A DNA stretch of 64,000 bases from a virus (Duplodnaviria; Heunggongvirae; Uroviricota; Caudoviricetes), in IMG/VR virus record IMGVR_UViG_3300019935_000001, positions 36,145-100,144 of that record; one strand, written 5' to 3'. The notes under the pieces are model-generated. The model saw only the letters and a list, made by a program, of their open reading frames with translations, was not told the DNA's origin and ran no database searches. This document shows, in pieces, positions 1 to 36,448 of this stretch (position 1 is its first letter; every line of letters starts with the position of its first letter). The translations under genes were made by a program, and so were the position numbers.

Positions 1-164
1 TCGTCCGCAGTGTGCCAGTGACGCTCGGCGAAGAGGGCCTTGAGTTCATGGCAGAGCTCCACCGCGCAACTGCAGAGATCGAGAGCGGCAAAACACCGAG
101 CCGAATCCTTGCCGACATGATAGAGCACCCAACCCTTCCAGCTGAAAAGATTTTCAGTAGTCAC
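1..164 (-). CDS. hypothetical protein, N-terminal part only (gene runs off the window start)
   Basis: Minus-strand frame stays open from GTG at 164 (GAGGTG about 9 nt upstream) to the window edge. It starts just downstream of the rep stop. No recognisable motif. Confidence 0.3.
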   Translation of the reverse strand, partial: MTTENLFSWKGWVLYHVGKDSARCFAALDLCSCAVELCHELKALFAERHWHTAD

Positions 165-174
165 TCGCTGCACC

Positions 175-1305
175 TCAGAATCGCGGCGTAACCCACCGAC
201 CGGTTTGGATTAGATTCAAGCAGACGTTGATTCCCTTCTGAACCGGCCACCACTCCATCGAACCAAACTTCAACGACCAGTCGATCTCCCTAAGCAAGGT
301 CTTCACCCGATCTGGAGCAATCCCCATTTTCTCAAGTCTGGTTTTCACCTGCAGACGAATGTGCGGAAACATCTTCCACGAATCGCGCGAATGCGCTCCT
401 GTTGTCGTATAACATATCTCCGTAGGAGATTTATTTACCTTAGTACTTTGTGTCCCAGATTTGCGACCCCCCTGGCTGTCACCTCTGACACCCCCGCTGT
501 GAGTATCTTTTGTCAGTTCGGGCTGACTTGTCAGAGCGTTTCTAAGCGCGTTCAAATGCCGAATTGCTGTATTGTCACTACTTCTCTGTTTGCGCTCGTT
601 CTGAGCTAAAGCAGAGCGTTCTGCGGGCACATTCTCGCCGGGTTTCGGCTGTAGATTTCGATCTGAACAACCTTCTTCACATGTGCTGTGCTGAAAATCA
701 TAGTCGCGGATAGTCGCGATATATTCTGGTTGTTCAATTTGATCTTTGTAGTAGTCGCGGATAGTCTCGCTAATATCGTCTGGTTGCTCGCATAGTCCCG
801 GATAGTCGCGGTATTCATTGATTTTATTGTTAGAGTCGCGAACAGTCGCGGGGCAATCTTTCTTTACCTTCCGAATCTCTTCAAACTCATGTGCCGTTAT
901 CTGCTTGCTGATCACCTCGCGGGGGGTCGCGGACTTTCGTATCTTTTCCATTTCCTTCATCGGTAGTCGCGGACCATAGATGTTAGGCAAACTCTCACCG
1001 TCTGTTCCATTTCTCGTGACCACCAAAAGATAACCACCTTCCCGAAGCTCTTTGATTAATCGCCAGATAGTTGACTCCGACTTGCCTGTCGCAACTTTAA
1101 GGTAAGTCGCGGAGGCTTCAGTCTTCATGCCTGGTTTAAGCGCTGCCAACCTGTAAAGATTCAGCCACAGGATTTTGGCGGCGTCTGACAAGCCTGATCT
1201 CAGAAGCACATGGTCAATTACAGATGTCGCAAGGATGCGATATTCGTATCGCTCGTTGAGATATTGAAGCTGCTTCTCTGAGCAGGGTTCACACGGTCTG
1301 GACAT
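175..1305 (-). CDS. putative replication initiator (winged-helix N-terminal domain; iterons embedded mid-gene, lambda O-like layout)
   Basis: 376 aa. N-terminal wHTH-like segment (LSDAAKILWLNLYRLA...SESTIWRLIKELREGGYLLV). Central linker with repeated (T/S)IRDY peptides encoded by DNA repeats. Sits next to parAB. Confidence 0.6.
   Translation of the reverse strand: MSRPCEPCSEKQLQYLNERYEYRILATSVIDHVLLRSGLSDAAKILWLNLYRLAALKPGMKTEASATYLKVATGKSESTIWRLIKELREGGYLLVVTRNGTDGESLPNIYGPRLPMKEMEKIRKSATPREVISKQITAHEFEEIRKVKKDCPATVRDSNNKINEYRDYPGLCEQPDDISETIRDYYKDQIEQPEYIATIRDYDFQHSTCEEGCSDRNLQPKPGENVPAERSALAQNERKQRSSDNTAIRHLNALRNALTSQPELTKDTHSGGVRGDSQGGRKSGTQSTKVNKSPTEICYTTTGAHSRDSWKMFPHIRLQVKTRLEKMGIAPDRVKTLLREIDWSLKFGSMEWWPVQKGINVCLNLIQTGRWVTPRF
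701..851. repeat. iteron array: four tandem pairs of a 10-bp TAGTCGCGGA-type repeat
   Basis: Pairs start at 701/711, 752/762, 793/803 and 832/842. Core GTCGCG(G/A). An AT-rich patch lies at 812-831. Extra copies at 924, 964, 1103, 2418, 2448, 2488 (reverse) and 3364. Confidence 0.7.
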
Positions 1306-1323
1306 TGCTGTTCCCCTTAAACG

Positions 1324-1348
1324 AAAAAAGGGTCGCGAAGCGCGACCC
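1324..1348 (-). terminator. GC hairpin GGGTCGCG/CGCGACCC plus T6 on the minus strand (intrinsic terminator and/or Rep operator)
   Basis: Minus strand reads AAAGGGTCGCGCTTCGCGACCCTTTTTTCG. The arms are an inverted pair of the iteron core. It lies 25 nt upstream of the rep start codon. Confidence 0.5.
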
Positions 1349-1408
1349 TTTGGTGGTTGAGTAGTGTTGAGGCATTAAAAAAGGCCGCATTAAGCGACCT
1401 TTTCTTGT

Positions 1409-1598
1409 TTTGTCGTACCGGTACGACAAATGCGATTTTGGGTTATCTGGCGGGGGCGTACTGTATCTCATGGCCTCTTCTTCAATTCTGTCGTACCGGT
1501 ACGACAAACCTGCTTTGCCATACCTTTCTGATTTTGTCGTACCGGTACGACAAACGGTTTGTCATACCCTTTTTCTGTTTTGTCGTACCGGTACGACA
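1409..1598. repeat. parS-like centromere: four copies of the perfect palindrome TGTCGTACCGGTACGACA
   Basis: Cores at 1411-1428, 1489-1506, 1535-1552 and 1581-1598. The last three sit in 46-bp tandem units with similar spacers. The array lies directly downstream of the parB stop. Confidence 0.7.
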
Positions 1599-1600
1599 AA

Positions 1601-2659
1601 TTACTTCACTTTGGCTTCTGCCAGCTCCAGTAAGACCTTCAGGCAGTCATCTACAGAGACATGCTCAAGCAGATCCTTGCGCAGAGAGATCGTAGGGGTG
1701 CCATTGCTGTCGTTGCGGACAGTGAAGCACTCCTGACCATTCACCTTCACAGTGTTGGTCTTTGAATTTGTCGTACCGGTACGACAATGCTCTGTCACCT
1801 TGGAAACGCTGATCTTCCCATCACGTATTTTATCTGCGATCTCAACCAGCTTTGGTATGTTCTGCTCATTGTCACTGCAAAGGCGAGAGAGCAGTTTAAC
1901 CATCTTCAGGCCAACACCTGACATTGGGCCAATAGCTTCTATCAGGCCCCCTGGTAACTTTGTGTATGCCAGATGTTCGCTAATAACCCGACGATCCCGC
2001 TCAAGAGCCACTGCCAGTGCAGACTGGCTTTTATAGACGCCATCGTTGAGCAGCTTGCTCCAGAACATGGCGTCAGCCCATGCTGATAAGCCATCACGCT
2101 TGTCATTCTCCAGCTGCTGGACACGAGCTGCCTCGGCATCAGTAAGTGTCCGGACATTGGCCGGTACTTTGATTCCAAGCTCCAGACAGGCTTTCCAGCG
2201 ACGACGGCCCGCGATCACTTCAAATGAACCCGGTTGGGACGTGTCGGGGCGCACGATGATCGGAACCTCAATGCCTTCGGCTATAGACTTAACGAACTCG
2301 TCCCAGTTGCCAAACTCAGACTCCGGGCGATTCGCATACTTCCAGGGTTTGATTTTTTCAGCAGGGATCAGCCGAACCAGAAATTTATCATCTGGCTTTT
2401 GTGTGGACTTATCGTAGGTAGTCGCGGGCCTCTTCTTTCCTGAACTGCCAGTCGCGGTAGATTTTTCAGCTGCCTTGTTTTTGGCAGCCCGCGACTCTTC
2501 TTTCTTTGGCGCAGGTGAATCCGTTTCCGCTGCAGGAATTTCCAGCGCAGACAGGTTCAGGCCACTAATATCTGCCTTCGGAGCTTGTCTGTCCCGGAAT
2601 TGTTCGGACTGTGCCAACATCGCACCCATTGCGCCTGTCAGCTTCTTGTCACCAGCCAT
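1601..2659 (-). CDS. parB: ParB partition protein
   Basis: 352 aa. ParB-box motif FEVIAGRRRWKACLELG. Immediately downstream of parA (3-nt gap). Palindrome array follows. Confidence 0.85.
   Translation of the reverse strand: MAGDKKLTGAMGAMLAQSEQFRDRQAPKADISGLNLSALEIPAAETDSPAPKKEESRAAKNKAAEKSTATGSSGKKRPATTYDKSTQKPDDKFLVRLIPAEKIKPWKYANRPESEFGNWDEFVKSIAEGIEVPIIVRPDTSQPGSFEVIAGRRRWKACLELGIKVPANVRTLTDAEAARVQQLENDKRDGLSAWADAMFWSKLLNDGVYKSQSALAVALERDRRVISEHLAYTKLPGGLIEAIGPMSGVGLKMVKLLSRLCSDNEQNIPKLVEIADKIRDGKISVSKVTEHCRTGTTNSKTNTVKVNGQECFTVRNDSNGTPTISLRKDLLEHVSVDDCLKVLLELAEAKVK
1769..1786. repeat. fifth copy of the TGTCGTACCGGTACGACA palindrome, inside the parB 3' coding region
   Basis: Exact 18-bp core within parB, encoding ...HCRTGTTNSK... 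Confidence 0.6.
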
Positions 2660-2662
2660 TTA

Positions 2663-3826
2663 TTAATCCATCCCCCACACTCGGCAATAATCTTCAAAGA
2701 TCTCGCCGTATACCAGGTTGAAGTTATCGATTGCCCGCTTATAGGACTCACGGCTCGACAGAGGCTTGTTAAGGTCATAGACGCTTGTCAGTTGCTCACA
2801 CGCCTTCTCGACCTCTGTGGTCTGCACAATGGCGTTACTGAGGACGTATTCGCCGTATAATTCCCTGATGTCAGACTCGACCTTCCGGGCCGTCTGAGTG
2901 CCGCTGTGTTTCGTGATCAAGATACGCACGTAGTCCATCTTCTTGTCTACTGCATCGAACAGAACAGACAGGGAGTTGGAGAACATCACGAACGAAGCCA
3001 GGTCGTAGGTGGCCGGAGGCACTGGGATAACCATGGCGTCCGCTGCGATCAGAGCATTCGTTGTAAGAGCGCCCATGTTCGGCGGGCAGTCGATCAGAAT
3101 CAGGTCGTATATAGGGCGGAGGGCATCCACGACGCGCTTCAGGCGAAGTAGAGGCTCACCCATCTTGCGGGAATTGTTAACGTCCCGGTTCGGGAGAGCC
3201 AGGTCAAGATCCTGAATGCCCAGGTTAGCCGGAATCAGATGGACATTCGGAACGTAAGTCTGACGGATCACATTCTGCAGTGCTGAGTAGTCCTCAAGAA
3301 GCACTGGGTGAATGGTATCTTCAATTGTCAGTTCCAGGTCCGGGATGAATGGCCCCAGCGAGAAGGTCGCGGATGCTTGAGGGTCGAGATCGATAACCAG
3401 AACCTTCATGCCTTTGTTCGAGGCCATATAGTGAGCCTCATTGACAACGCTCGTGGTTTTGCCAACGCCACCCTTGAAGTTACTTGATGCCTTTACGATG
3501 GCACCAGTACCAGAGGGTTTCTGAAAGCCTGTACCAAGCTGTTCGCGCAGTTCCTGGATACGATGAAGGGTGTAGATCTTGCGACCGTTTGTGCCTTTCG
3601 GCGTGTCCTTGTCGTGTTCTCGGAGCCAAGGTACAGAGCGACCAATCATGGCTGCGGCTTCGGCAACACCATATGTCCGTGGCTCTTTCAGGGTCTTTGG
3701 GGAAACTATCGAGGCACGTAGCTCTTCGAGTTTTGCGCTCCCTTTACGATTGAAGTTGGCAAAAGTCTCGCCCGCGTTTTCCATGGCAAGCCGTGACTTT
3801 ACTGTATCGAAGAGGTCTTCTGACAT
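2663..3826 (-). CDS. parA: ParA partition ATPase, type Ia (long N-terminal extension)
   Basis: 387 aa. Deviant Walker A KGGVGKTT. Size matches P1 ParA / F SopA. parB lies downstream. Confidence 0.9.
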   Translation of the reverse strand: MSEDLFDTVKSRLAMENAGETFANFNRKGSAKLEELRASIVSPKTLKEPRTYGVAEAAAMIGRSVPWLREHDKDTPKGTNGRKIYTLHRIQELREQLGTGFQKPSGTGAIVKASSNFKGGVGKTTSVVNEAHYMASNKGMKVLVIDLDPQASATFSLGPFIPDLELTIEDTIHPVLLEDYSALQNVIRQTYVPNVHLIPANLGIQDLDLALPNRDVNNSRKMGEPLLRLKRVVDALRPIYDLILIDCPPNMGALTTNALIAADAMVIPVPPATYDLASFVMFSNSLSVLFDAVDKKMDYVRILITKHSGTQTARKVESDIRELYGEYVLSNAIVQTTEVEKACEQLTSVYDLNKPLSSRESYKRAIDNFNLVYGEIFEDYCRVWGMD

Positions 3827-3852
3827 TTGATGGTATCTCTGTACTTTGTCCT

Positions 3853-3873
3853 ATATGGCAAATTTAAAGCCAT
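3853..3873. promoter_or_regulatory. candidate parA operator
   Basis: Inverted repeat TATGGC-N9-GCCATA 27 nt upstream of the parA ATG. ATGGCAAA / GGCAAAAG repeats at about 3855, 3879 and 3905. Confidence 0.35.
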
Positions 3874-3930
3874 AAGTAGGCAAAAGCAAGGTTTTCTCAA
3901 AAATATGGCAAAAGGGTTATTTTAGGGAAA

Positions 3931-3960
3931 ATAAAAGGTGGCATCGAAATGCCACTTTTT
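3931..3960 (-). terminator. hairpin GTGGCAT-CGAA-ATGCCAC flanked by A/T runs
   Basis: 7-bp stem at 3938-3955 with T-rich sequence on both strands. Positioned after the 4068..4502 minus-strand gene. Confidence 0.5.
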
Positions 3961-4067
3961 AACTGCTAAGGCCCAAAATGCTAGTGAAGTTAGGCCTGGA
4001 ATGTTTGCTATAAAGGGCCTGTGTTTACAGTTGTCTACAAGGGATGACCTCTATGAAGCAGAAGCCG

Positions 4068-4502
4068 CTAGTCATTCGACTGGTAATACTCTCTTATCAA
4101 TTGGTCGATTTTGGCCTGCAACTCAGGGTCGTAACTGCGCTTCTTGGTACCAGATTGTCTAAGTGCATTTAGTACCGCCTGCGTTGAGCCAATTTCAAGG
4201 TCAGATTTGGGTAACAGGTTTACTGCATCGAGTGCTGAAGATACGCCGTCCAGGTATTCTCTAATACACAGGATGGCAAAATTTGCTGGGTCTATCTCGA
4301 TAGCTTTTGCCAGCCTGACTGCCTTGTCGATAGGGACTTTGTATTTACCCTGGCGAATCATTGCAATGTTGTTGCCAAGCTTGAAGCCTGCTGCTTCAGC
4401 TATTTCCTGATGTGGCGTCTCTGCAAAGTCATTGAAGACGGTCTTGTCTACAAGCTCAGCGACCGGACACTCAAGGTTTTCGTGCCGTGTTTTACGTCTC
4501 AT
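4068..4502 (-). CDS. putative HTH DNA-binding regulator (XRE-like)
   Basis: 144 aa. HTH-like segment HQEIAEAAGFKLGNNIAMIRQGKYKVP. Lies upstream of the par operon. Confidence 0.5.
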   Translation of the reverse strand: MRRKTRHENLECPVAELVDKTVFNDFAETPHQEIAEAAGFKLGNNIAMIRQGKYKVPIDKAVRLAKAIEIDPANFAILCIREYLDGVSSALDAVNLLPKSDLEIGSTQAVLNALRQSGTKKRSYDPELQAKIDQLIREYYQSND

Positions 4503-5188: not shown

Positions 5189-7360
5189 ATGAACGGAAAG
5201 CAAAAACGTATACAGGTGATCAGAGAAGCGATGCTCAAGGTGGCCCGAATTATGGCCGGTCGTGGAATCAAGATCACTCAGGCGGGCACTGGTGCTTTTG
5301 TTCGGTATAACAGTCACACTGGCTGTATCGAAAGGATCAACATTCCGATGATCCCGGACGATGCCAGCGAAGATTTGATCCACGCAACGCATGGTTTCCT
5401 GGATCACGAGATCGGGCATGTGCTTTTTACTGAGTACGAATGCTTTGCAAAAGCGAACAGGGCCAAATGCGGCGTCTTGTTCAACATTGCGGAAGACACC
5501 TATGTTGAGCGAATGATGCAGTCCGAGTTCACAGGTTCAATCAGTAACCTGGGCAAGTCATGCCAAATCATGACTGAAAGGTACATTGAGCCGAAGCTCC
5601 GGGAGCTGCTGGCGCACACCGTTCCAACCGAAAAGGATTGGTGGGGGCTGTTATGTGCAACCTCTATCCGGGCAATAGCCGGGCAGGAGCACTTCATCGA
5701 TTACATGAACCAGGACGATAAGTGGGATCTGATCCCGAACTTCGGAAAGGTTCTGCGAAAGCACGAAGCTGAGATCAAGGCGATCAGTAGTTCACAGGAT
5801 TCGTATGAAGTGGCATTGAAGATCAAACAGGACATGCTGGCAGCTGAGCCCGAGGAGCAGGACAGTGAGCCAGACCAGTCCGGCGGTGACGATCAGCAGA
5901 GCGGTGGAGAAGGTAAAGCTGAAAAGCCGCAGGGTGACAGTGAAGGCGAAACCGATGATGGCACCCGAGCAGACGATACCTTCTCGAAAGGTGAAGGTGA
6001 AAGCTCTGGCGAAGAAGAAAAAGATGATTCTTCTTCATCTAGTAGCAACACACAACATAACAAAGACAGTGAAGATGATGACCAGTCAGACGAATCGGAT
6101 GCTGATAGCGATGACTCAAAGGGCGAGTCCGGCAGTGCTGGCTCCGATAGCGCTGAAGAAGGTGATGGTGAATCCGACGAAGGCCCTGGTGCCGGTGATA
6201 GTTCGGGGGATGGTTCAGACGATGATGAAGACTCTGAATCAGAAGGCAGATCAGGGGGTGCAGGCTCGTCAGCTGGCGGCGATGACGCAGGTGAAGGCGG
6301 CGATAGCGAGATTGATGCAGATGATGTGATTAATGACCCGATGGCTCCGTTGCTGACTGAATCAGAGGTGGAGAGCATGGGTGAAGACTTCGACGATGCG
6401 ATGACAAAGGTTATCGGCGAGATGTCAGCTGATGCACTTAGAGGCTCTGAAGAATATGTGCCGTTCACACGCGACTGGGACGTTATCGAGCCACTGAAGC
6501 TATCAAGAAACTACGATCCGAATCTGGCCGACAAGGTTGCTGATACAGTCAATTACATGGTTGGCACGATGGCGAAAAGTCTGGAGCGTGCATTTCGTGC
6601 AGCCAACCGATCCCGCTGGGAAGGCGGTAAGAAGTCTGGCCGTATTAACAGCGCCGCACTATCCCGATTACTGGCAAACGACCCACGGGTGATGCGTACC
6701 CGCCAGGAGATGAAGACTCGTGATGTAGCTGTTTCTCTATTGGTGGACTGCTCCGGCTCTATGAGTGGGAAGAAGATGGAGGTTGCGTGTCAGACTGCGT
6801 GGGCGCTGGGCGAGGTGCTATCAAAGCTGAATTTGCCTTGTGAGATACTGGGGTTCACAACCTGCAGAATCAAAAACCAGTTCGACCATTTGGAGAAGGA
6901 GCTGGCTGATGTATTCCGTGACGGTACAGGTCAGCAATTCAGCAGGTTCGAGCCGATCTATATACCTATATTCAAATCATTTGATGAGCGGTTTGGTACG
7001 GCAGCTAAAGCACGCCTTGCGGATGCCGCATACGAGGGTATGCGGCGGAAGATGAACTGCAATATTGATGGCGAATCTCTGCTGTACGCAGCCGAGCGCC
7101 TGCGGAAGCGCCCGGAGCCAGGAAAGGTAATGATTGTGTTGTCAGACGGAGCCCCGGCCGGTGTAGGTAAACAACTTGAAGCTCACCTGAAGAAGGTGGT
7201 CAAAGATCTCAATACCGAAGGCATCAACACTGTCGGGATCGGCATCATGAGTCAGGCGGTGAGATCTTACTACCCCCGCCATGTAATCCTGAACAAAGTA
7301 GAGGACCTCCCAAAGGCAGTTGTAGGGGAGCTGCGGGAGGCAATTCTGGCGAAAGACTGA
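5189..7360 (+). CDS. cobT: CobT-like protein with C-terminal VWA domain
   Basis: 723 aa. MIDAS motif DCSGSMSG. About 160-aa D/E/S/G-rich acidic region (nt about 5843-6329). N-terminal HEIGH (HExxH) at nt 5405-5419. Paired with the CobS-like ATPase. Confidence 0.7.
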   Translation: MNGKQKRIQVIREAMLKVARIMAGRGIKITQAGTGAFVRYNSHTGCIERINIPMIPDDASEDLIHATHGFLDHEIGHVLFTEYECFAKANRAKCGVLFNIAEDTYVERMMQSEFTGSISNLGKSCQIMTERYIEPKLRELLAHTVPTEKDWWGLLCATSIRAIAGQEHFIDYMNQDDKWDLIPNFGKVLRKHEAEIKAISSSQDSYEVALKIKQDMLAAEPEEQDSEPDQSGGDDQQSGGEGKAEKPQGDSEGETDDGTRADDTFSKGEGESSGEEEKDDSSSSSSNTQHNKDSEDDDQSDESDADSDDSKGESGSAGSDSAEEGDGESDEGPGAGDSSGDGSDDDEDSESEGRSGGAGSSAGGDDAGEGGDSEIDADDVINDPMAPLLTESEVESMGEDFDDAMTKVIGEMSADALRGSEEYVPFTRDWDVIEPLKLSRNYDPNLADKVADTVNYMVGTMAKSLERAFRAANRSRWEGGKKSGRINSAALSRLLANDPRVMRTRQEMKTRDVAVSLLVDCSGSMSGKKMEVACQTAWALGEVLSKLNLPCEILGFTTCRIKNQFDHLEKELADVFRDGTGQQFSRFEPIYIPIFKSFDERFGTAAKARLADAAYEGMRRKMNCNIDGESLLYAAERLRKRPEPGKVMIVLSDGAPAGVGKQLEAHLKKVVKDLNTEGINTVGIGIMSQAVRSYYPRHVILNKVEDLPKAVVGELREAILAKD

Positions 7361-17070: not shown

Positions 17071-18372
17071 GGAGGGTGTTCACCGTTCTGTGTCACCGTT
17101 TTATTCACAGGTCGACATACTGGTCGATTCTGTCAGGGAAGTGGATGCTCAGCTGAGACAGCGTGAGGTTCCAGTTCTGCACTGGATGCGTCCACTTCTC
17201 TGAGGCCCTCAATATGCCCGCATAGAGCAGCTTCAGCAGGCTGTTTTCATTGGCGAAGCCACCCTTGGTTTTGGTCAGTTTCCGGAACTGACGGTGCACG
17301 GCCTCAACTGCATTGGTCGTGTAGATCGCACGCCTTACCTGTTCCGGGTACTTGAAGTACACCGACAGGTTCTCCCACTTGCTACGCCATGACTTGATGA
17401 CCAGCGGGTACTGTTTCCCCCACTTTGCCTCCAGCTCGTCCAGCGCCTGCTCTGCGGCGTTTCGCGTCGCCGCCTTGTAGACGCATTTCAGATCCACCAT
17501 AAATGCCTTCTGATTCTTGCTGGCGACGTACTTCATGGAGTTGCGGATCTGGTGAACAATACACAGCTGTACTTCTGTTTCCGGATAGATGCTTTCGATC
17601 GCTTCAGGAAAGCCTTTCAGACCATCCACAGAGGCAATAAGGATGTCTTTCAGACCTCGATTCTGCAGATCTGTCAGGACGCTGAGCCAGTAATGTGCAC
17701 CTTCATTTTCAGACAGATAGAGTCCCAGCAGCTCCTTCTTACCTTCGATGGTTAGCCCAAGAATGGTGTACACCGCTTTGGAGATGAAACGACCATTCTC
17801 TTTCACTTTGTAGTGAATGGCATCCAGCCAGACAAAAGGGTATACCGGCTCCAGATCACGCTCTTGCCAGGCTTTAAGCTCCGGCACCAGGCGATCAGTT
17901 ACGGCGTTAATCATGCCGTTGGAGACGCTCATACCGTACATTTCACAGATATGGTCACGGATGTTCTGGTAACTGCTGCCTAATGCAAACAGAGACAGTA
18001 TCTTGCCTTCCATTTCATCAGTCAGACGGGTCTGATATTTCCTGACAGTCTGGGGCTCAAATGAGCCATTGCGATCTCTCGGCGTCTCCAGCTCGAACTC
18101 GCCAGCAGCGGTTTTGACTGTTTTCTTTGAGGTGCCATTTTTCCGATTGGCGGCCGGATTTTCTGCAAGGTGCTCATCAATCTCTGCACCCAATGCGGCT
18201 TCAGTGATCTGTTTGATCAGTGGTGTCAGGAGGCCATCCTTGCCATTGAGGTTCTGTCCAGATTGCAGCGCTTTGGCAAACGCCTGAATATCGATTTCGT
18301 ACTTGTCAGACATGATGTGTCGCTCCCCGTTTCACTCAGTGTAGGAAACGACACAGAACTCTGAACACTACC
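17071..18372 (-). mobile_element. IS256-family insertion sequence (about 1.3 kb)
   Basis: Single Mutator-type transposase gene. Imperfect terminal inverted repeats: GGTGTTCACCGTTCTGTGTC (about 17075-17094) versus the reverse complement of GACACAGAACTCTGAACAC (18350-18368). No target-site duplication could be identified. Confidence 0.7.
17105..18313 (-). CDS. IS256-family (Mutator-type) transposase
   Basis: 402 aa. Typical family N-terminus (GKDGLLTPLIKQITEAALGAEIDEHL) and core (WLDAIHYKV, VDGLKGFPEAI, CIVHQIRNS). Confidence 0.9.
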   Translation of the reverse strand: MSDKYEIDIQAFAKALQSGQNLNGKDGLLTPLIKQITEAALGAEIDEHLAENPAANRKNGTSKKTVKTAAGEFELETPRDRNGSFEPQTVRKYQTRLTDEMEGKILSLFALGSSYQNIRDHICEMYGMSVSNGMINAVTDRLVPELKAWQERDLEPVYPFVWLDAIHYKVKENGRFISKAVYTILGLTIEGKKELLGLYLSENEGAHYWLSVLTDLQNRGLKDILIASVDGLKGFPEAIESIYPETEVQLCIVHQIRNSMKYVASKNQKAFMVDLKCVYKAATRNAAEQALDELEAKWGKQYPLVIKSWRSKWENLSVYFKYPEQVRRAIYTTNAVEAVHRQFRKLTKTKGGFANENSLLKLLYAGILRASEKWTHPVQNWNLTLSQLSIHFPDRIDQYVDL

Positions 18373-19968: not shown

Positions 19969-21045
19969 ATGACCAAACCGTTCGGGGTTGCATCCGATGT
20001 GCATCTCCATAACTGGACCGCTTTTGCTGAGTCCACAGCAGATGGAGTTAACTCCCGTCTGCGCATCATTCTTAACGAGCTGATCCGTGCCGCCCAACAG
20101 ACTCTCAAGTCTGGCGGTAAGCGCATGGTAATCACCGGCGACCTGTTTCACGTTCGCGGCTCTATCACTCCATCCGTACTGAACCCGACACTGGACACTT
20201 TTCGTCAGATCATAGACATGGGCATCGAAGAGGTCGATGTGCTGGCCGGTAATCATGACCTGGAGTCGAAAGACAGCAACGCACTGACTAACGCCTGTGA
20301 AGCGCTGAGCCAGCTGTCGGAAGTCATGGTTGTATCAGCAACAAAGATCGTTGATCGCAATCGGGCGGTGTATGTCCCGTGGTACGACAACAGTGACGAT
20401 CTGCTGGCAGAGATTAACCGTGCAATCGGCGAGCTGCCGGAGCCTGTTGGCGAGTACGACCTGTTCATTCATGCACCGGTGGACGATGTGCTGCCGAACA
20501 TGCCGGGTCACGGGATCAACCCTGATGACCTGAAGAACCTGGGCTTCCGCTATGTTTTCTCCGGCCACTATCACAACCACAAAGAAGTGCGCGATGGCGT
20601 GTTCTCTGTCGGTGCAACAACTCACCAGACGTGGGGTGATGTCGATTCAAAGGCGGGCTTCCTGCTCGTGAATGACAGAGGCGTTAGCTACTGGCCGTCC
20701 GAAGCACCTGCATTCGTAGATCTGAGCGCTGCAACCGTAACTGATGACGTCGAAGCGTGGGATCTGTGTTCTGGCAATTATGTCCGGGTGAAGCTCGATC
20801 AGGTTACTCAGTCCGAAGTGGCCGAGATCAAGAGCTGGCTGATCGACGACATCGGGGCGAAGAACTGCATTATCCAGGCAACTCCGAAGAACAAGGTTGT
20901 CAGTCGCACCAGGTCGTCGAAAGGCGGAACGCTGCGTGAAAGCGTTGGTGACTTTGTAGGCTCGAAAAATATGACAGTTGAAAAGAAAGATGTGCTGGCA
21001 GTGTGCGAAGACATTCTGACGGCGACAGCAGGGGTGACAGTATGA
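19969..21045 (+). CDS. sbcD: SbcD/Mre11-family nuclease
   Basis: 358 aa. Metallophosphoesterase motifs GDLFH, GNHD, GHYHNH. Confidence 0.8.
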   Translation: MTKPFGVASDVHLHNWTAFAESTADGVNSRLRIILNELIRAAQQTLKSGGKRMVITGDLFHVRGSITPSVLNPTLDTFRQIIDMGIEEVDVLAGNHDLESKDSNALTNACEALSQLSEVMVVSATKIVDRNRAVYVPWYDNSDDLLAEINRAIGELPEPVGEYDLFIHAPVDDVLPNMPGHGINPDDLKNLGFRYVFSGHYHNHKEVRDGVFSVGATTHQTWGDVDSKAGFLLVNDRGVSYWPSEAPAFVDLSAATVTDDVEAWDLCSGNYVRVKLDQVTQSEVAEIKSWLIDDIGAKNCIIQATPKNKVVSRTRSSKGGTLRESVGDFVGSKNMTVEKKDVLAVCEDILTATAGVTV

Positions 21046-21368
21046 TTCAGATTAATGGCGTGACGATTAGCGGTGATGTCTCCCGGATGGACATCATAGA
21101 GGGAAAGATCATCGTTGACGGCGCTCAGGTCAACGGTATCGAACCTCCGATTCAGATTACCGGCAATGTTTCAAATCTCAGATGCGACCAGAGCGTAGAG
21201 GTTAACGGCGATGTCGGTAACGTCAGTGCGGGCGGCTCTGTACGTTGCGGGAACGTTTCAGGCAGCGCTGGTGCTGGAGGGTCTGTACGTTGCGGAAACG
21301 TTACCGGTAACGTTAATGCAGGTGGCTCTGTCCGCGTTGGCAGTATTTCCGGGGGGATGAAGCTGTGA
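21042..21368 (+). CDS. beta-helix repeat protein (bactofilin-like repeats)
   Basis: 108 aa from the ATG at 21042 (ATGA overlap with sbcD). Repeats of GNVS..GGSVRCGNV. Its stop overlaps the sbcC GTG start. Confidence 0.5.
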   Translation: MIQINGVTISGDVSRMDIIEGKIIVDGAQVNGIEPPIQITGNVSNLRCDQSVEVNGDVGNVSAGGSVRCGNVSGSAGAGGSVRCGNVTGNVNAGGSVRVGSISGGMKL

Positions 21369-23290
21369 AGTTCAAGAGCCTGAAAATCGAAAATTTTCTG
21401 ACAGTCGGGGTTATCGAAGCGGGCCTAGCCAATAAGGGGTTGGTGCTTGTACAGGGGGAGAACCGTGATGACACCAGTCAGGACAGCAATGGGTCGGGCA
21501 AGTCTTCATTCGTGGATGCACTGTGTTGGTGTCTTTATGGATCGACAGCCCGAGGTGTTTCGGGTGATGCCGTAATCAACGACACGGCGGGCAAGAACTG
21601 CCGGGTTGTGGCCTCTATCGAATTTGATGGCGAAGAGTACAAGATCTCCCGCCACCGCAAATACACCAAGATGCGCAACCGCCTGATCGTTGAAGGCCCA
21701 TCCGGCGATCTGACACTGGGCACAGATAAGCTGACGCAGGAGGTCGTGAATAAACTGGTCGGTGCCACTGCAGATGTCTTCTGTGCGTCCGTATACGCGG
21801 GCCAGGAAAACGTCCCGGATCTGCCGGGCATGACAGATGTGAACCTGAAAGCAATCGTCGAAGAAGCAGCCGGTATTAACCAGCTCGATGCCGCTCATAA
21901 GCTGGCCCGCGATAAGAAGAACGCCATTCAGCGTGATCTGGAGAACGATAATCGTGATCTCCAGTACAACGAGCAGAAGCTGCAGGATCTGAACAGCAAT
22001 CTCGCCACTACAGAAGCCCGGCTCAAGCAGTGGAAGAGCAACCACGAAGTTCGGGTTGAAGAGGCAAAGCGAAACCTTTTTTCGGTGAAAGTCGAAAAGG
22101 AAAAGCTGACGAGCGACGCGGAGACAGCCCGGACGGTTGAGGAGATCACTGCTGACCTGAATGCGTTGTCTGCACAGCTGACTGATCACGGGACTGCAAC
22201 TAAGCAGCGACAGATGCTTACTCAGGAGGCGGTTGCTGTCGAGAAGAAGGCGGCCGTTCAGGGTGCAAAAGTCGCCACAGTCACTACAGAGGTGAAGCGC
22301 CTGAAGAACAAGCTCGACGCTGTGACCGGAAAGCTCGGAGAGCCATGCTCTGAGTGTGGCCGTGATCACGACGAGTCAACCCTGGGTGTCGCTCACCAAA
22401 CTGTCAAATCTGAGCTGAAAAGCAAAGCGCTTGAAATGAAGAGCGAGAAAGCAGAGTTGGCGAGACTCACAGAAGCGTATCAGAGCGCTGTACAGCGCGT
22501 TTCAGAGTTCACCGATGCGATGACCGATGTTAGCGAGATAATCGCCGCACAGAGCGAACTGAGCGAAGAGAGAGCCGCTGCCAGCGCCCGTAACGCGAAG
22601 GTAGAGGCAGCGAGCGAAAAACTGGGCCAGTGCGCTCGCACCTACAAGGCCGTTCTGCACGAAAACAACCCTTATGCGGACTCCTATGCGGACATTGCCG
22701 AGCAAATCAGAAGTCAGTCTGCCCTGATCGATGATGCCCGGACTGCGATCAAGGCCAAGGAATACAAGCTCGAAGTCGCAGAAGAGGCTGTGCATGTGTT
22801 CGGCCCGGCGGGTGTACGTGCTCATATCCTGGACACAGTGACTCCGTTCCTGAACGACAAGACCTCTGAGTACCTGTCTGTGCTTTCCGACGGCAACATT
22901 CAGGCCGTATGGAACACGCTCGGGACAACTGCGAAGGGTGAGGTTCGGGAGAAGTTCAATATTGAAGTCACCAGCGAAACCGGTGGCGACTCCTTCAAGA
23001 AACTGTCAGGTGGTGAGAAGCGAAAAGTTCGCCTGGCAACGTCTATGGCCCTGCAAGATCTGGTAGCGAGCCGAGCAACAAAGCCTATCGACCTATTCAT
23101 TGCAGACGAGGTTGATGCAGCTATCGACGAATCCGGGTTGGAACGACTGATGACAATCCTGAAAAGCAAGGCCGAACAGGTTGGTACTGTTCTGGTGATT
23201 TCTCACTCGGACCTGAAGAGCTGGATCAGCAACAGTGTGACGGTTGTGAAAGAGAAGGGCATGGCGCGTCTGGAAGGGTATGCACTGTGA
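21365..23290 (+). CDS. sbcC: SbcC/Rad50-family ATPase
   Basis: 641 aa. Walker A NGSGKSS, long coiled coil with a CSEC zinc hook, signature LSGGEKRKV, Walker B LFIADEVD. Confidence 0.85.
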   Translation: MKFKSLKIENFLTVGVIEAGLANKGLVLVQGENRDDTSQDSNGSGKSSFVDALCWCLYGSTARGVSGDAVINDTAGKNCRVVASIEFDGEEYKISRHRKYTKMRNRLIVEGPSGDLTLGTDKLTQEVVNKLVGATADVFCASVYAGQENVPDLPGMTDVNLKAIVEEAAGINQLDAAHKLARDKKNAIQRDLENDNRDLQYNEQKLQDLNSNLATTEARLKQWKSNHEVRVEEAKRNLFSVKVEKEKLTSDAETARTVEEITADLNALSAQLTDHGTATKQRQMLTQEAVAVEKKAAVQGAKVATVTTEVKRLKNKLDAVTGKLGEPCSECGRDHDESTLGVAHQTVKSELKSKALEMKSEKAELARLTEAYQSAVQRVSEFTDAMTDVSEIIAAQSELSEERAAASARNAKVEAASEKLGQCARTYKAVLHENNPYADSYADIAEQIRSQSALIDDARTAIKAKEYKLEVAEEAVHVFGPAGVRAHILDTVTPFLNDKTSEYLSVLSDGNIQAVWNTLGTTAKGEVREKFNIEVTSETGGDSFKKLSGGEKRKVRLATSMALQDLVASRATKPIDLFIADEVDAAIDESGLERLMTILKSKAEQVGTVLVISHSDLKSWISNSVTVVKEKGMARLEGYAL

Positions 23291-35837: not shown

Positions 35838-36448
35838 TGCGCGAACTGATTGTAAATGTTACCGATATTGAAACTACTGGCCTGAAGCAGGAAGACGGCC
35901 ATCGCATCATTGAGGTTGCGATGGCCCTGCTGAAGATCCAGTTCAACGACGACAACACCTTTGCTGGCTATAAGCGAGTAGGCAAAACCTGGTGTCAGCG
36001 AATCAATCCGTGCCGGAACATCGATGCAGCTGCACAGGCTGTTCACGGTATCAGCTTATCGAGTCTGCGCGGCGAGCCGGTCTGGGAAGATGTAGCCGGG
36101 CGTGTTGCAAAGATCCTGGCGGCGAGTGATGTCGCGGTGGCTCACAATGTTGAGTTTGATATGCCGTTCATTGCTCTGGAGCTGGTACGCATTGGCCAAG
36201 AGATCCCGGACTTCGAAACCTTCTGTACTTTGGAAGGCGGGCGATCTGCTACGGGCCTGGGCACAGTACCTAGCCTGCAGAAGCTATGTTGGGCCATGGG
36301 TGTGCCGTACAACCCGGATGAAGCCCACGCTGCTGATTACGATGTGGACTGCACAGTTGATGCGCTGGTCAAGGGTTTGAATCTGGGATACTTCAGCTTC
36401 GCTGATGTCCTGAACGAAAAGTATGGTGAAGCCAGTGCTGAAGTTTGA
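35837..36448 (+). CDS. DnaQ-like DEDDh 3'-5' exonuclease
   Basis: 203 aa. Exo I VTDIETTGL, Exo II VAHNVEFDMPF, Exo III HAADYDVDC. Confidence 0.8.
   Translation: MRELIVNVTDIETTGLKQEDGHRIIEVAMALLKIQFNDDNTFAGYKRVGKTWCQRINPCRNIDAAAQAVHGISLSSLRGEPVWEDVAGRVAKILAASDVAVAHNVEFDMPFIALELVRIGQEIPDFETFCTLEGGRSATGLGTVPSLQKLCWAMGVPYNPDEAHAADYDVDCTVDALVKGLNLGYFSFADVLNEKYGEASAEV

Follow-up and report, generated by a model that had tools for sequence, protein, structure and literature searches.

A probable parS centromere in and behind the parB gene of a putative SSU5/pHCM2-like phage-plasmid

Which function do short perfect palindromes fulfil when they crowd together at the end of a partition gene and even enter its reading frame? 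The question is raised by a parA-parB gene pair in the IMG/VR virus record IMGVR_UViG_3300019935_000001 (Caudoviricetes), of which a stretch of 64,000 nucleotides was analyzed (positions 36,145 to 100,144 of the record; termed the window in the following, with all coordinates counted from its first letter). An earlier note, made from the letters of the window alone, had drawn attention to five copies of a palindrome downstream of and inside parB and had proposed them as a candidate centromere of the adjacent parAB genes. The palindromes could also serve replication, act as hairpins in the parAB transcript or be operators of another regulator. We consider it highly likely that they constitute the parS centromere of a type Ia-like ParABS system residing in an SSU5/pHCM2-like phage-plasmid, and on the sequence evidence presented below the parS cluster is very probably real and functional.

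Palindrome copies and the partition proteins beside them

An exact-match scan of the window returned the 18-mer TGTCGTACCGGTACGACA five times, at 1411-1428, 1489-1506, 1535-1552, 1581-1598 and 1769-1786, precisely where the earlier note had placed it, and no additional copy was found in the 64 kb even when up to three mismatches were allowed. The assertion that five copies cannot be due to chance also holds. In dinucleotide-preserving shuffles of the window 0.01 matches are expected, and none of 100 shuffles reached five. Including its flanks, the site amounts to a palindrome of 20 nt, TTGTCGTACCGGTACGACAA. The length of 18-22 bp given before is correct, as the 18-nt core is perfect in all five copies and the symmetry extends to 22 nt (TTTGTCGTACCGGTACGACAAA) at three of them, i.e., copy 1, the one farthest from parB (1409-1430), copy 3 (1533-1554) and copy 4 (1579-1600). 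Copy 2 (1488-1507, CTGTCGTACCGGTACGACAA) carries a single mismatch in the outer arm of the 20-mer (CTGTCG...), and copy 5 (1768-1787, core 1769-1786) is a perfect 20-nt palindrome within parB. No strand is assigned to any of these sites. The copies start 78, 46, 46 and 188 bp apart. Tandem Repeats Finder detects a 46-bp period over 1485-1600 (2.5 copies, 87% matches), with copies 2 and 3 in the first and second unit, which agrees with the 46-bp tandem units with related spacers described in the note. Copies 1-4, four sites in ~190 bp, occupy the space that separates the stop codon of parB from a pair of hairpins further downstream; the end of copy 4 (1600) directly adjoins the stop codon (1601-1603, minus strand).

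The genes parA and parB are both encoded on the minus strand, as is a Rep-like gene that follows them. The parA product (2663-3826, 387 aa) is a Walker-type partition ATPase that matches AAA_31 (E 1e-36) and CbiA (E 1e-16); its Walker A motif (KGGVGKTT, residues 118-125) is of the deviant type. Its residues 75-289 are collinear with residues 74-294 of P1 ParA, and the long ParAs of P1 and P7 are comparable. The ATPase core begins at about residue 113 and is preceded by an N-terminal extension of ~110 aa, as in long ParAs. An extension of about 100 aa is the regulatory domain of P1 ParA and F SopA. By sequence, the protein is a long P1-like ATPase.

The parB product (1601-2659, 352 aa) contains a ParB_N domain (E 2e-12), and its residues 88-296 align to Noc and Spo0J through the helix-turn-helix (HTH) region with E values of 8e-18 to 1e-11. 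No SopB match was obtained for it in Pfam. The arginine patch GRRRWKA (G151-A157), which corresponds to the GxxRxxA CTP motif, is invariant in all ParBs of the family introduced below. Based on the family alignment, an AlphaFold model was calculated that reaches a mean pLDDT of 75 and exceeds 85 across most of the core; it shows a disordered N-terminal region (29-88), helices over 193-292 and a separate C-terminal domain (302-351), the predicted dimerisation domain. Foldseek aligns this model to CTP- or DNA-bound Noc, ParB and KorB structures with E values from 1e-13 to 1e-10, and a match to KorB was also recorded at E 5e-10 (TM 0.68-0.70 on the target), while the DNA-binding domain of F SopB and P1 ParB are reached only at about 1e-3. 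RepB proteins are among the distant sequence matches (~35-40% identity over ~40% of the protein), and no relative with more than 35% identity was present in phage or plasmid collections. Sequence and model thus characterize the protein as a canonical ParB of the CTP-clamp type, similar to Noc, Spo0J and KorB. ParA collinearity and ParB type taken together, the locus is therefore assigned to ParABS systems with type Ia gene organisation and a clamp-type ParB.

A family-wide site and its copy within parB

Ten metagenomic relatives of ParB with 43-56% identity were found in syntenic loci, resulting in a family of 11 members. In these loci, we counted sites of the pattern TTGTC-N10-GACAA, allowing at most one arm mismatch and demanding at least 14 of 20 palindromic positions. 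All 11 loci contain such sites, 38 altogether and two to five per locus, and every one of them lies within parB or at most 175 nt past its stop codon. Outside these places, neither the family loci (84 kb) nor the window contained any. Shuffling the window gave a background of 0.16 sites per 64 kb, and a single match appeared in ParB loci outside the family (L052-L054 and L056-L119). Inverted repeats in cis beside the operon thus co-occur with the cognate ParB, with five in the window and 38 across the 11 loci.

The sites are not uniform. Positions 2-5 of the half-site (TGTC) are invariant in 76 of 76 half-sites, while positions 6-10 vary between elements and are homogeneous within an element. 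The core is CGTACCGGTACG in the window, CGGACCGGTACG in L040, CCGTCCGGTCGG in L039, CCACCATAGTGG in L044, CCGCCCGGGCGG in L046 and L047, CCGTCCGGACGG in L049 and L050, and CCGGTYRACCGG in L048 and L051. This arm and core pattern is what would be expected of a diverging ParB that co-evolves with its own centromere. A mixture of two cores was seen at L048 6321-6611, with three sites of the CCGGTCAACCGG type and one of the CCGCCCGGGCGG type. At L051 1245-1264, the stop codon of parB (TGA) falls inside a palindrome. Two extra sites each are located in the 5' part of parB in L047 (1341-1420) and L050 (1640-1707), at codons 43-63, which align to the disordered N-terminal region of the window ParB model. 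L047 has no sites downstream of parB, and all three of its sites reside inside the gene. Spacings in the relatives are irregular (34-80 bp), so the 46-bp tandem unit is not a trait of the family; it is a local duplication in the element studied here, which yielded two of its sites. In a more distant locus (L120, ParB 37% identical), the layout is kept with three 20-nt palindromes starting from the parB stop, and their sequence, ACCGTGTA...TACACGGT, is unrelated.

The copy inside parB deserves separate consideration. As previously noted, it lies within the reading frame, and in frame it reads TGT CGT ACC GGT ACG ACA, i.e., codons 292-297 for C292-R-T-G-T-T297. A site occurs at the alignment column of residues 291-298 of the window protein (P0001) in eight of the 11 members. 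P0001, P0003 and P0004 have the peptide C-R-T-G-(T/S)-T at this place, whereas P0005, P0007, P0008, P0009 and P0011 have L-S-x-x-x-D-K. The peptide differs between the two clades because the DNA site is shifted by 1 nt and is consequently read in two frames. Judged from these alignments, the change of reading frame has altered the peptide and left the DNA conserved. Other sites in coding sequence give rise to recurring peptides of the second kind, namely LSVRTDK twice in P0007, SVRTDK twice near the N-terminus of P0009 and LSVRTDN at its linker site, LSGQPDK twice in P0011, and LSSRADK, LSARADK and LSAREDK in P0008. In the closest subgroup, formed by P0001, P0003 and P0004, no other 20-nt window of parB is as well conserved as the site (93% versus a mean DNA identity of 59%), which surpasses the catalytic motifs. 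At the site, the codon is the same for 14 of 16 identical residues, versus 246 of 564 gene-wide. Codon usage and identity at the site thus indicate that the intragenic copy is under selection at the DNA level. In the AlphaFold model, residues 292-297 lie where the last helix of the DNA-binding domain runs out into a low-confidence linker, which precedes the C-terminal domain; mean pLDDT is 60 over 291-300, with values below 50 at 296-298. According to the model, this linker should tolerate a sequence imposed by the DNA. Lin and Grossman reportedly described a parS site within the parB/spo0J coding sequence of Bacillus subtilis in 1998.

Proposed mechanism and rival explanations

ParB, Noc and KorB CTP clamps and ParA ATPases are established knowledge, summarised in PMC7022226, and it is by analogy with them that we infer binding, CTP clamping, spreading and segregation for the present system. 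ParB dimers would recognise each 20-bp TTGTC-N10-GACAA site through their HTH. The invariant outer TGTC/GACA would probably be read by conserved ParB residues, and the element-specific inner bases would probably set partition specificity and incompatibility. Binding to parS would then trigger CTP-dependent closure of the ParB clamp, which would slide onto the neighbouring DNA, such that a partition complex centred at the 3' end of parB would arise. Four sites plus the one in the linker codons of parB would offer multiple loading points for ParB. The partition complex would stimulate the long P1-type ParA ATPase on the nucleoid, and plasmid copies would be separated before cell division.

Some observations weigh against assigning the palindromes to the centromere of a phage-plasmid in this way. 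The four intergenic copies belong to the transcribed stretch at the 3' end of parB that precedes the terminators, and they could have a role at the RNA level. Co-variation of the ParB recognition helix with the site core is inseparable from phylogeny among the 11 members. Protein-pattern scans of IMG/VR and of JGI metagenomes yielded only distant ParBs (~30% identity) besides one known family contig, so the family stays at 11, too few for a clean covariation test. Moreover, the 64-kb window showed no phage structural genes.

The first of these observations leads to the proposal that the palindromes are RNA hairpins of the parAB transcript, be it 3'-end stabilisers, REP-like elements or attenuators, and that the symmetry of the DNA is a by-product. 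We regard this as very unlikely. All copies are indeed transcribed together with parB, and the predicted RNA fold is very stable (z = -9.3); note that the fold of 1300-1640 is uninformative because the repeated palindromes pair with each other. An mRNA structure that controls the ParB level is known from Caulobacter (PMC13371061), but it resides at the 5' end of the gene, and the paper deals with that 5' structure and not with an intragenic parS. None of the palindromes is followed by a T-run, a terminator scan calls none of them, and the true terminator-like hairpins are located further downstream. The outer-arm sequence (TGTC) is itself conserved, beyond what pairing demands, across ParBs that are 43-56% identical. 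In imperfect copies, G.T accounts for 5 of 29 mismatches, a proportion expected by chance, and every copy in L040 and L039 carries fixed mismatches at positions 7-8, G.A and T.T, neither of which is a wobble pair. The co-occurrence of the sites with ParB throughout the family likewise argues against RNA hairpins. Operators of another dimeric regulator, for instance of a phage repressor or of the 144-aa protein whose gene lies upstream of parA, or else a selfish interspersed repeat, are in our view a shade less probable still. Perfect palindromes of 18-22 bp are typical of repressor operators too, and TGTCGTACCGGTACGACA forms the core of an interspersed repeat of ~100 nt in Ruminiclostridium metagenome-assembled genomes (MAGs). 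However, copies are found neither close to promoters elsewhere in the 64 kb nor upstream of parA, and the sites are restricted to parB and its 3' flank in 11 of 11 elements. L048 and L049 retain the sites and have no 144-aa gene at the same position. The Ruminiclostridium repeat has only the 18-mer in common with the window, without shared context, and occurs as single scattered copies.

The remaining possibility is that the palindromes serve replication or its control, as iterons, operator or origin for the Rep-like protein of the HTH_36 family encoded at 175-1305. The intergenic cluster is placed directly upstream of this gene, which matches the phage families 'DnaD-like helicase loader' and 'replication initiation protein'. 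Of all explanations weighed here we give this one the least credence. The Rep-like gene has a distinct repeat of its own, CCGCGACT (AGTCGCGG on the plus strand), and nine of the ten copies in the window fall into the Rep-like gene and the 5' part of parB. Six are in the former (702-1112), where they encode IRDY repeats, and three are in parB (2420-2496, codons ~55-80), in the part for the disordered N-terminal region. An inverted pair of the GTCGCG core of CCGCGACT constitutes the hairpin at 1327-1351, just upstream of rep. The repeat is found in the same places in L040, L042 and L044, which have an HTH_36 rep gene; in L046, L047 and L051, neither parB nor its flanks contain it. In contrast, TTGTC-N10-GACAA is kept in L046, where a different gene is located downstream, and in L047, where no rep gene follows parB. 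Palindrome positions are fixed relative to the reading frame of parB and not to rep. Since L047 retains three palindromes without a Rep-like gene downstream and CCGCGACT tracks HTH_36, the palindromes follow ParB and CCGCGACT follows Rep. The CCGCGACT copies look like candidate iterons for Rep; the origin would then reside within the gene of the initiator, an arrangement known from lambda O, and additional copies are present in parB. With gene identities, family-wide co-occurrence, DNA-level selection and a distinct repeat for Rep all pointing in the same direction, the candidate centromere proposed by the earlier note is supported.

A more far-reaching idea builds on the centromere assignment. 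Sites for ParB occupy fixed positions in parB itself: the linker codons 292-297 and, depending on the relative, the 5' region or an overlap with the stop codon. More of them lie just upstream of the Rep-like gene, and the candidate Rep iterons have copies in the N-terminal coding part of parB. Conceivably, the binding sites for ParB and Rep are deliberately interleaved with each other's genes, such that ParB clamps loaded in and right behind parB and Rep bound within parB exert reciprocal feedback, which would couple parAB and rep expression and thereby copy number and partition. We consider this possible, albeit improbable. If it were true, the element-specific cores would represent at least seven partition-specificity (incompatibility) types derived from one ParB scaffold.

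Related partition systems and the genomic context

How does the parS locus compare with characterized partition systems? With the type Ia systems, i.e., parABS of P1 and P7 and sopABC of F, it shares the order parA-parB-centromere, a centromere immediately 3' of parB and a long ParA (387 aa) that is collinear with P1 ParA. It differs from them in that its ParB is closest to Noc, Spo0J and KorB and only marginally similar to SopB and P1 ParB (Foldseek E values of 1e-13 versus ~1e-3). A P1-like architecture of box A, box B and IHF site is not present. The earlier note had compared the arrangement with F sopC, and this comparison stands for the organisation and fails for homology. Both centromeres reiterate a short inverted repeat in tandem units, of 46 bp here; the unit of F sopC is 43 bp. 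However, the element has only 2.5 such units, their periodicity is a local feature with no counterpart in the relatives, one site is inside parB, and a centromere of the sopC type calls for a binder of the SopB family, to which this ParB does not belong. The resemblance is organisational, not homologous.

With chromosomal ParB/Spo0J-parS, the system has in common a canonical ParB that combines the GxxRxxA CTP motif with an HTH, and a simple palindrome that starts with TGT and ends with ACA. Beyond these outer TGT and ACA, TTGTCGTACCGGTACGACAA does not match the 16-bp chromosomal consensus TGTTNCACGTGAAACA. The site here is 20 bp long and clustered at one locus, it is accompanied by a long plasmid-type ParA, and the carrier is a phage-plasmid by our assignment. 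KorB-OB of RK2 and RepB-parS of repABC replicons are similar insofar as a ParB-family CTP clamp (predicted in our case) acts on a short perfect palindrome. Their palindrome sequences are different, and KorB operators are dispersed and control transcription, whereas the sites described here are clustered at parB.

All in all, this is very probably an ordinary kind of partition system, judging from its sequence, but one with an undescribed ParB subfamily that keeps one site in its own gene. A literature search brought up no account of the ParB subfamily or its site, nor of a partition site in SSU5-like elements. The analysis provides a candidate centromere and the consensus TTGTC-N10-GACAA for an uncharacterised ParB subfamily of putative large marine SSU5-like phage-plasmids. 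Eleven ParBs whose sites share invariant outer arms and have at least seven different cores form a natural series that is suited for studying ParB-parS specificity and the diversification of incompatibility. The copy in parB offers a clean case of a predicted DNA-binding site that is preserved in coding sequence across a change of reading frame. The understanding of the partition mechanism as such is unchanged by these sites.

Downstream of the parS cluster and just before the start of the Rep-like gene, the parAB transcription unit is closed by two tandem terminator-like hairpins on the minus strand (1327-1351 and ~1377-1400), each followed by a T-run and each with a GTCGCG motif in its stem. 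The pair is kept in relatives (L039 4524-4600, L044 7056-7134 and L040 7096-7182). These hairpins may be parAB terminators, Rep operators, given that GTCGCG is inverted in each of them, or both. A scan of 1200-4200 for sigma-70 promoters found none, and on the other side of the operon nothing resembling a conserved operator upstream of parA is shared among six loci, five of them from relatives. The sequence ATATGGCAAA is present twice upstream of parA, 50 bp apart (3853-3862 and 3903-3912), and the 46-bp parS unit contains its complement, TTTGCCATA, in the spacer (1514-1527). This motif could be a ParA operator. An Rfam search returned only a sub-threshold chance match to mir-214 within parA.

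The contig carrying P0001 has a length of 102,745 bp. Genes in the window encode a DnaE-like polymerase, SSB, an exonuclease, a UvsX-like recombinase, SbcCD, a helicase, both ribonucleotide reductase subunits, thymidylate synthase, CobT/VWA and AAA_5 proteins and an IS transposase, and related contigs add DNA ligase and a DnaG-like primase beside the rep gene. SSU5/pHCM2-like phage-plasmids have the same combination of DnaE-like polymerase, ribonucleotide reductase, thymidylate synthase, ligase, SbcCD, CobT/AAA_5, parAB and rep. The difference is one of distance, because DnaE is only 45-47% identical to its counterparts in ~110-kb Aeromonas plasmids and Pseudomonas phage nickie, and the phage and plasmid collections contain no ParB relative above 35% identity. 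We infer an SSU5/pHCM2-like phage-plasmid of ~100 kb from this replication and nucleotide-metabolism repertoire and from the distant similarity to the Aeromonas plasmids and nickie. A megablast of window positions 1-4200 against plasmid and phage collections gave no near-identical DNA. Samples in which relatives occur include Tara and other marine metagenomes.

Exact matches to TGTCGTACCGGTACGACA were absent from IMG/VR and present at 36 loci of GTDB genomes, all unrelated, comprising singletons in Actinomycetota and other taxa and the Ruminiclostridium MAG repeat. The latter (L001-L036; MAGs RGIG5413, RGIG7682 and RGIG3085) is found on at least 25 contigs of rumen and colon MAGs, has the flanks GAGGGGTGC...GGGTATGC and GATAGCACCCCTCAG and is unrelated to ParB. 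On an uncultured alphaproteobacterial contig of 1.2 Mb (L013, 4380-4450), two half-site-like repeats GTACGACA stand beside a single copy of the 18-mer, in what may be an unrelated cluster of binding sites.

Further observations concern the remainder of the window. SbcD- and SbcC-like subunits of a palindrome-cleaving nuclease are encoded at 19969-23290, and the SbcD-like gene contains an isolated parS half-site, TTGTCGTACC, at 20372-20381, where ~0.12 would be expected by chance. The block of replication genes is interrupted by a complete IS-type transposase gene (17105-18313, minus strand; phrog_2331, E 5e-150), around which the GC content is lower (0.45 over 18-20 kb). The CobT/VWA-like protein (5189-7360, phrog_1576) has a central acidic low-complexity stretch of ~200 aa that is rich in D, E, S and G.

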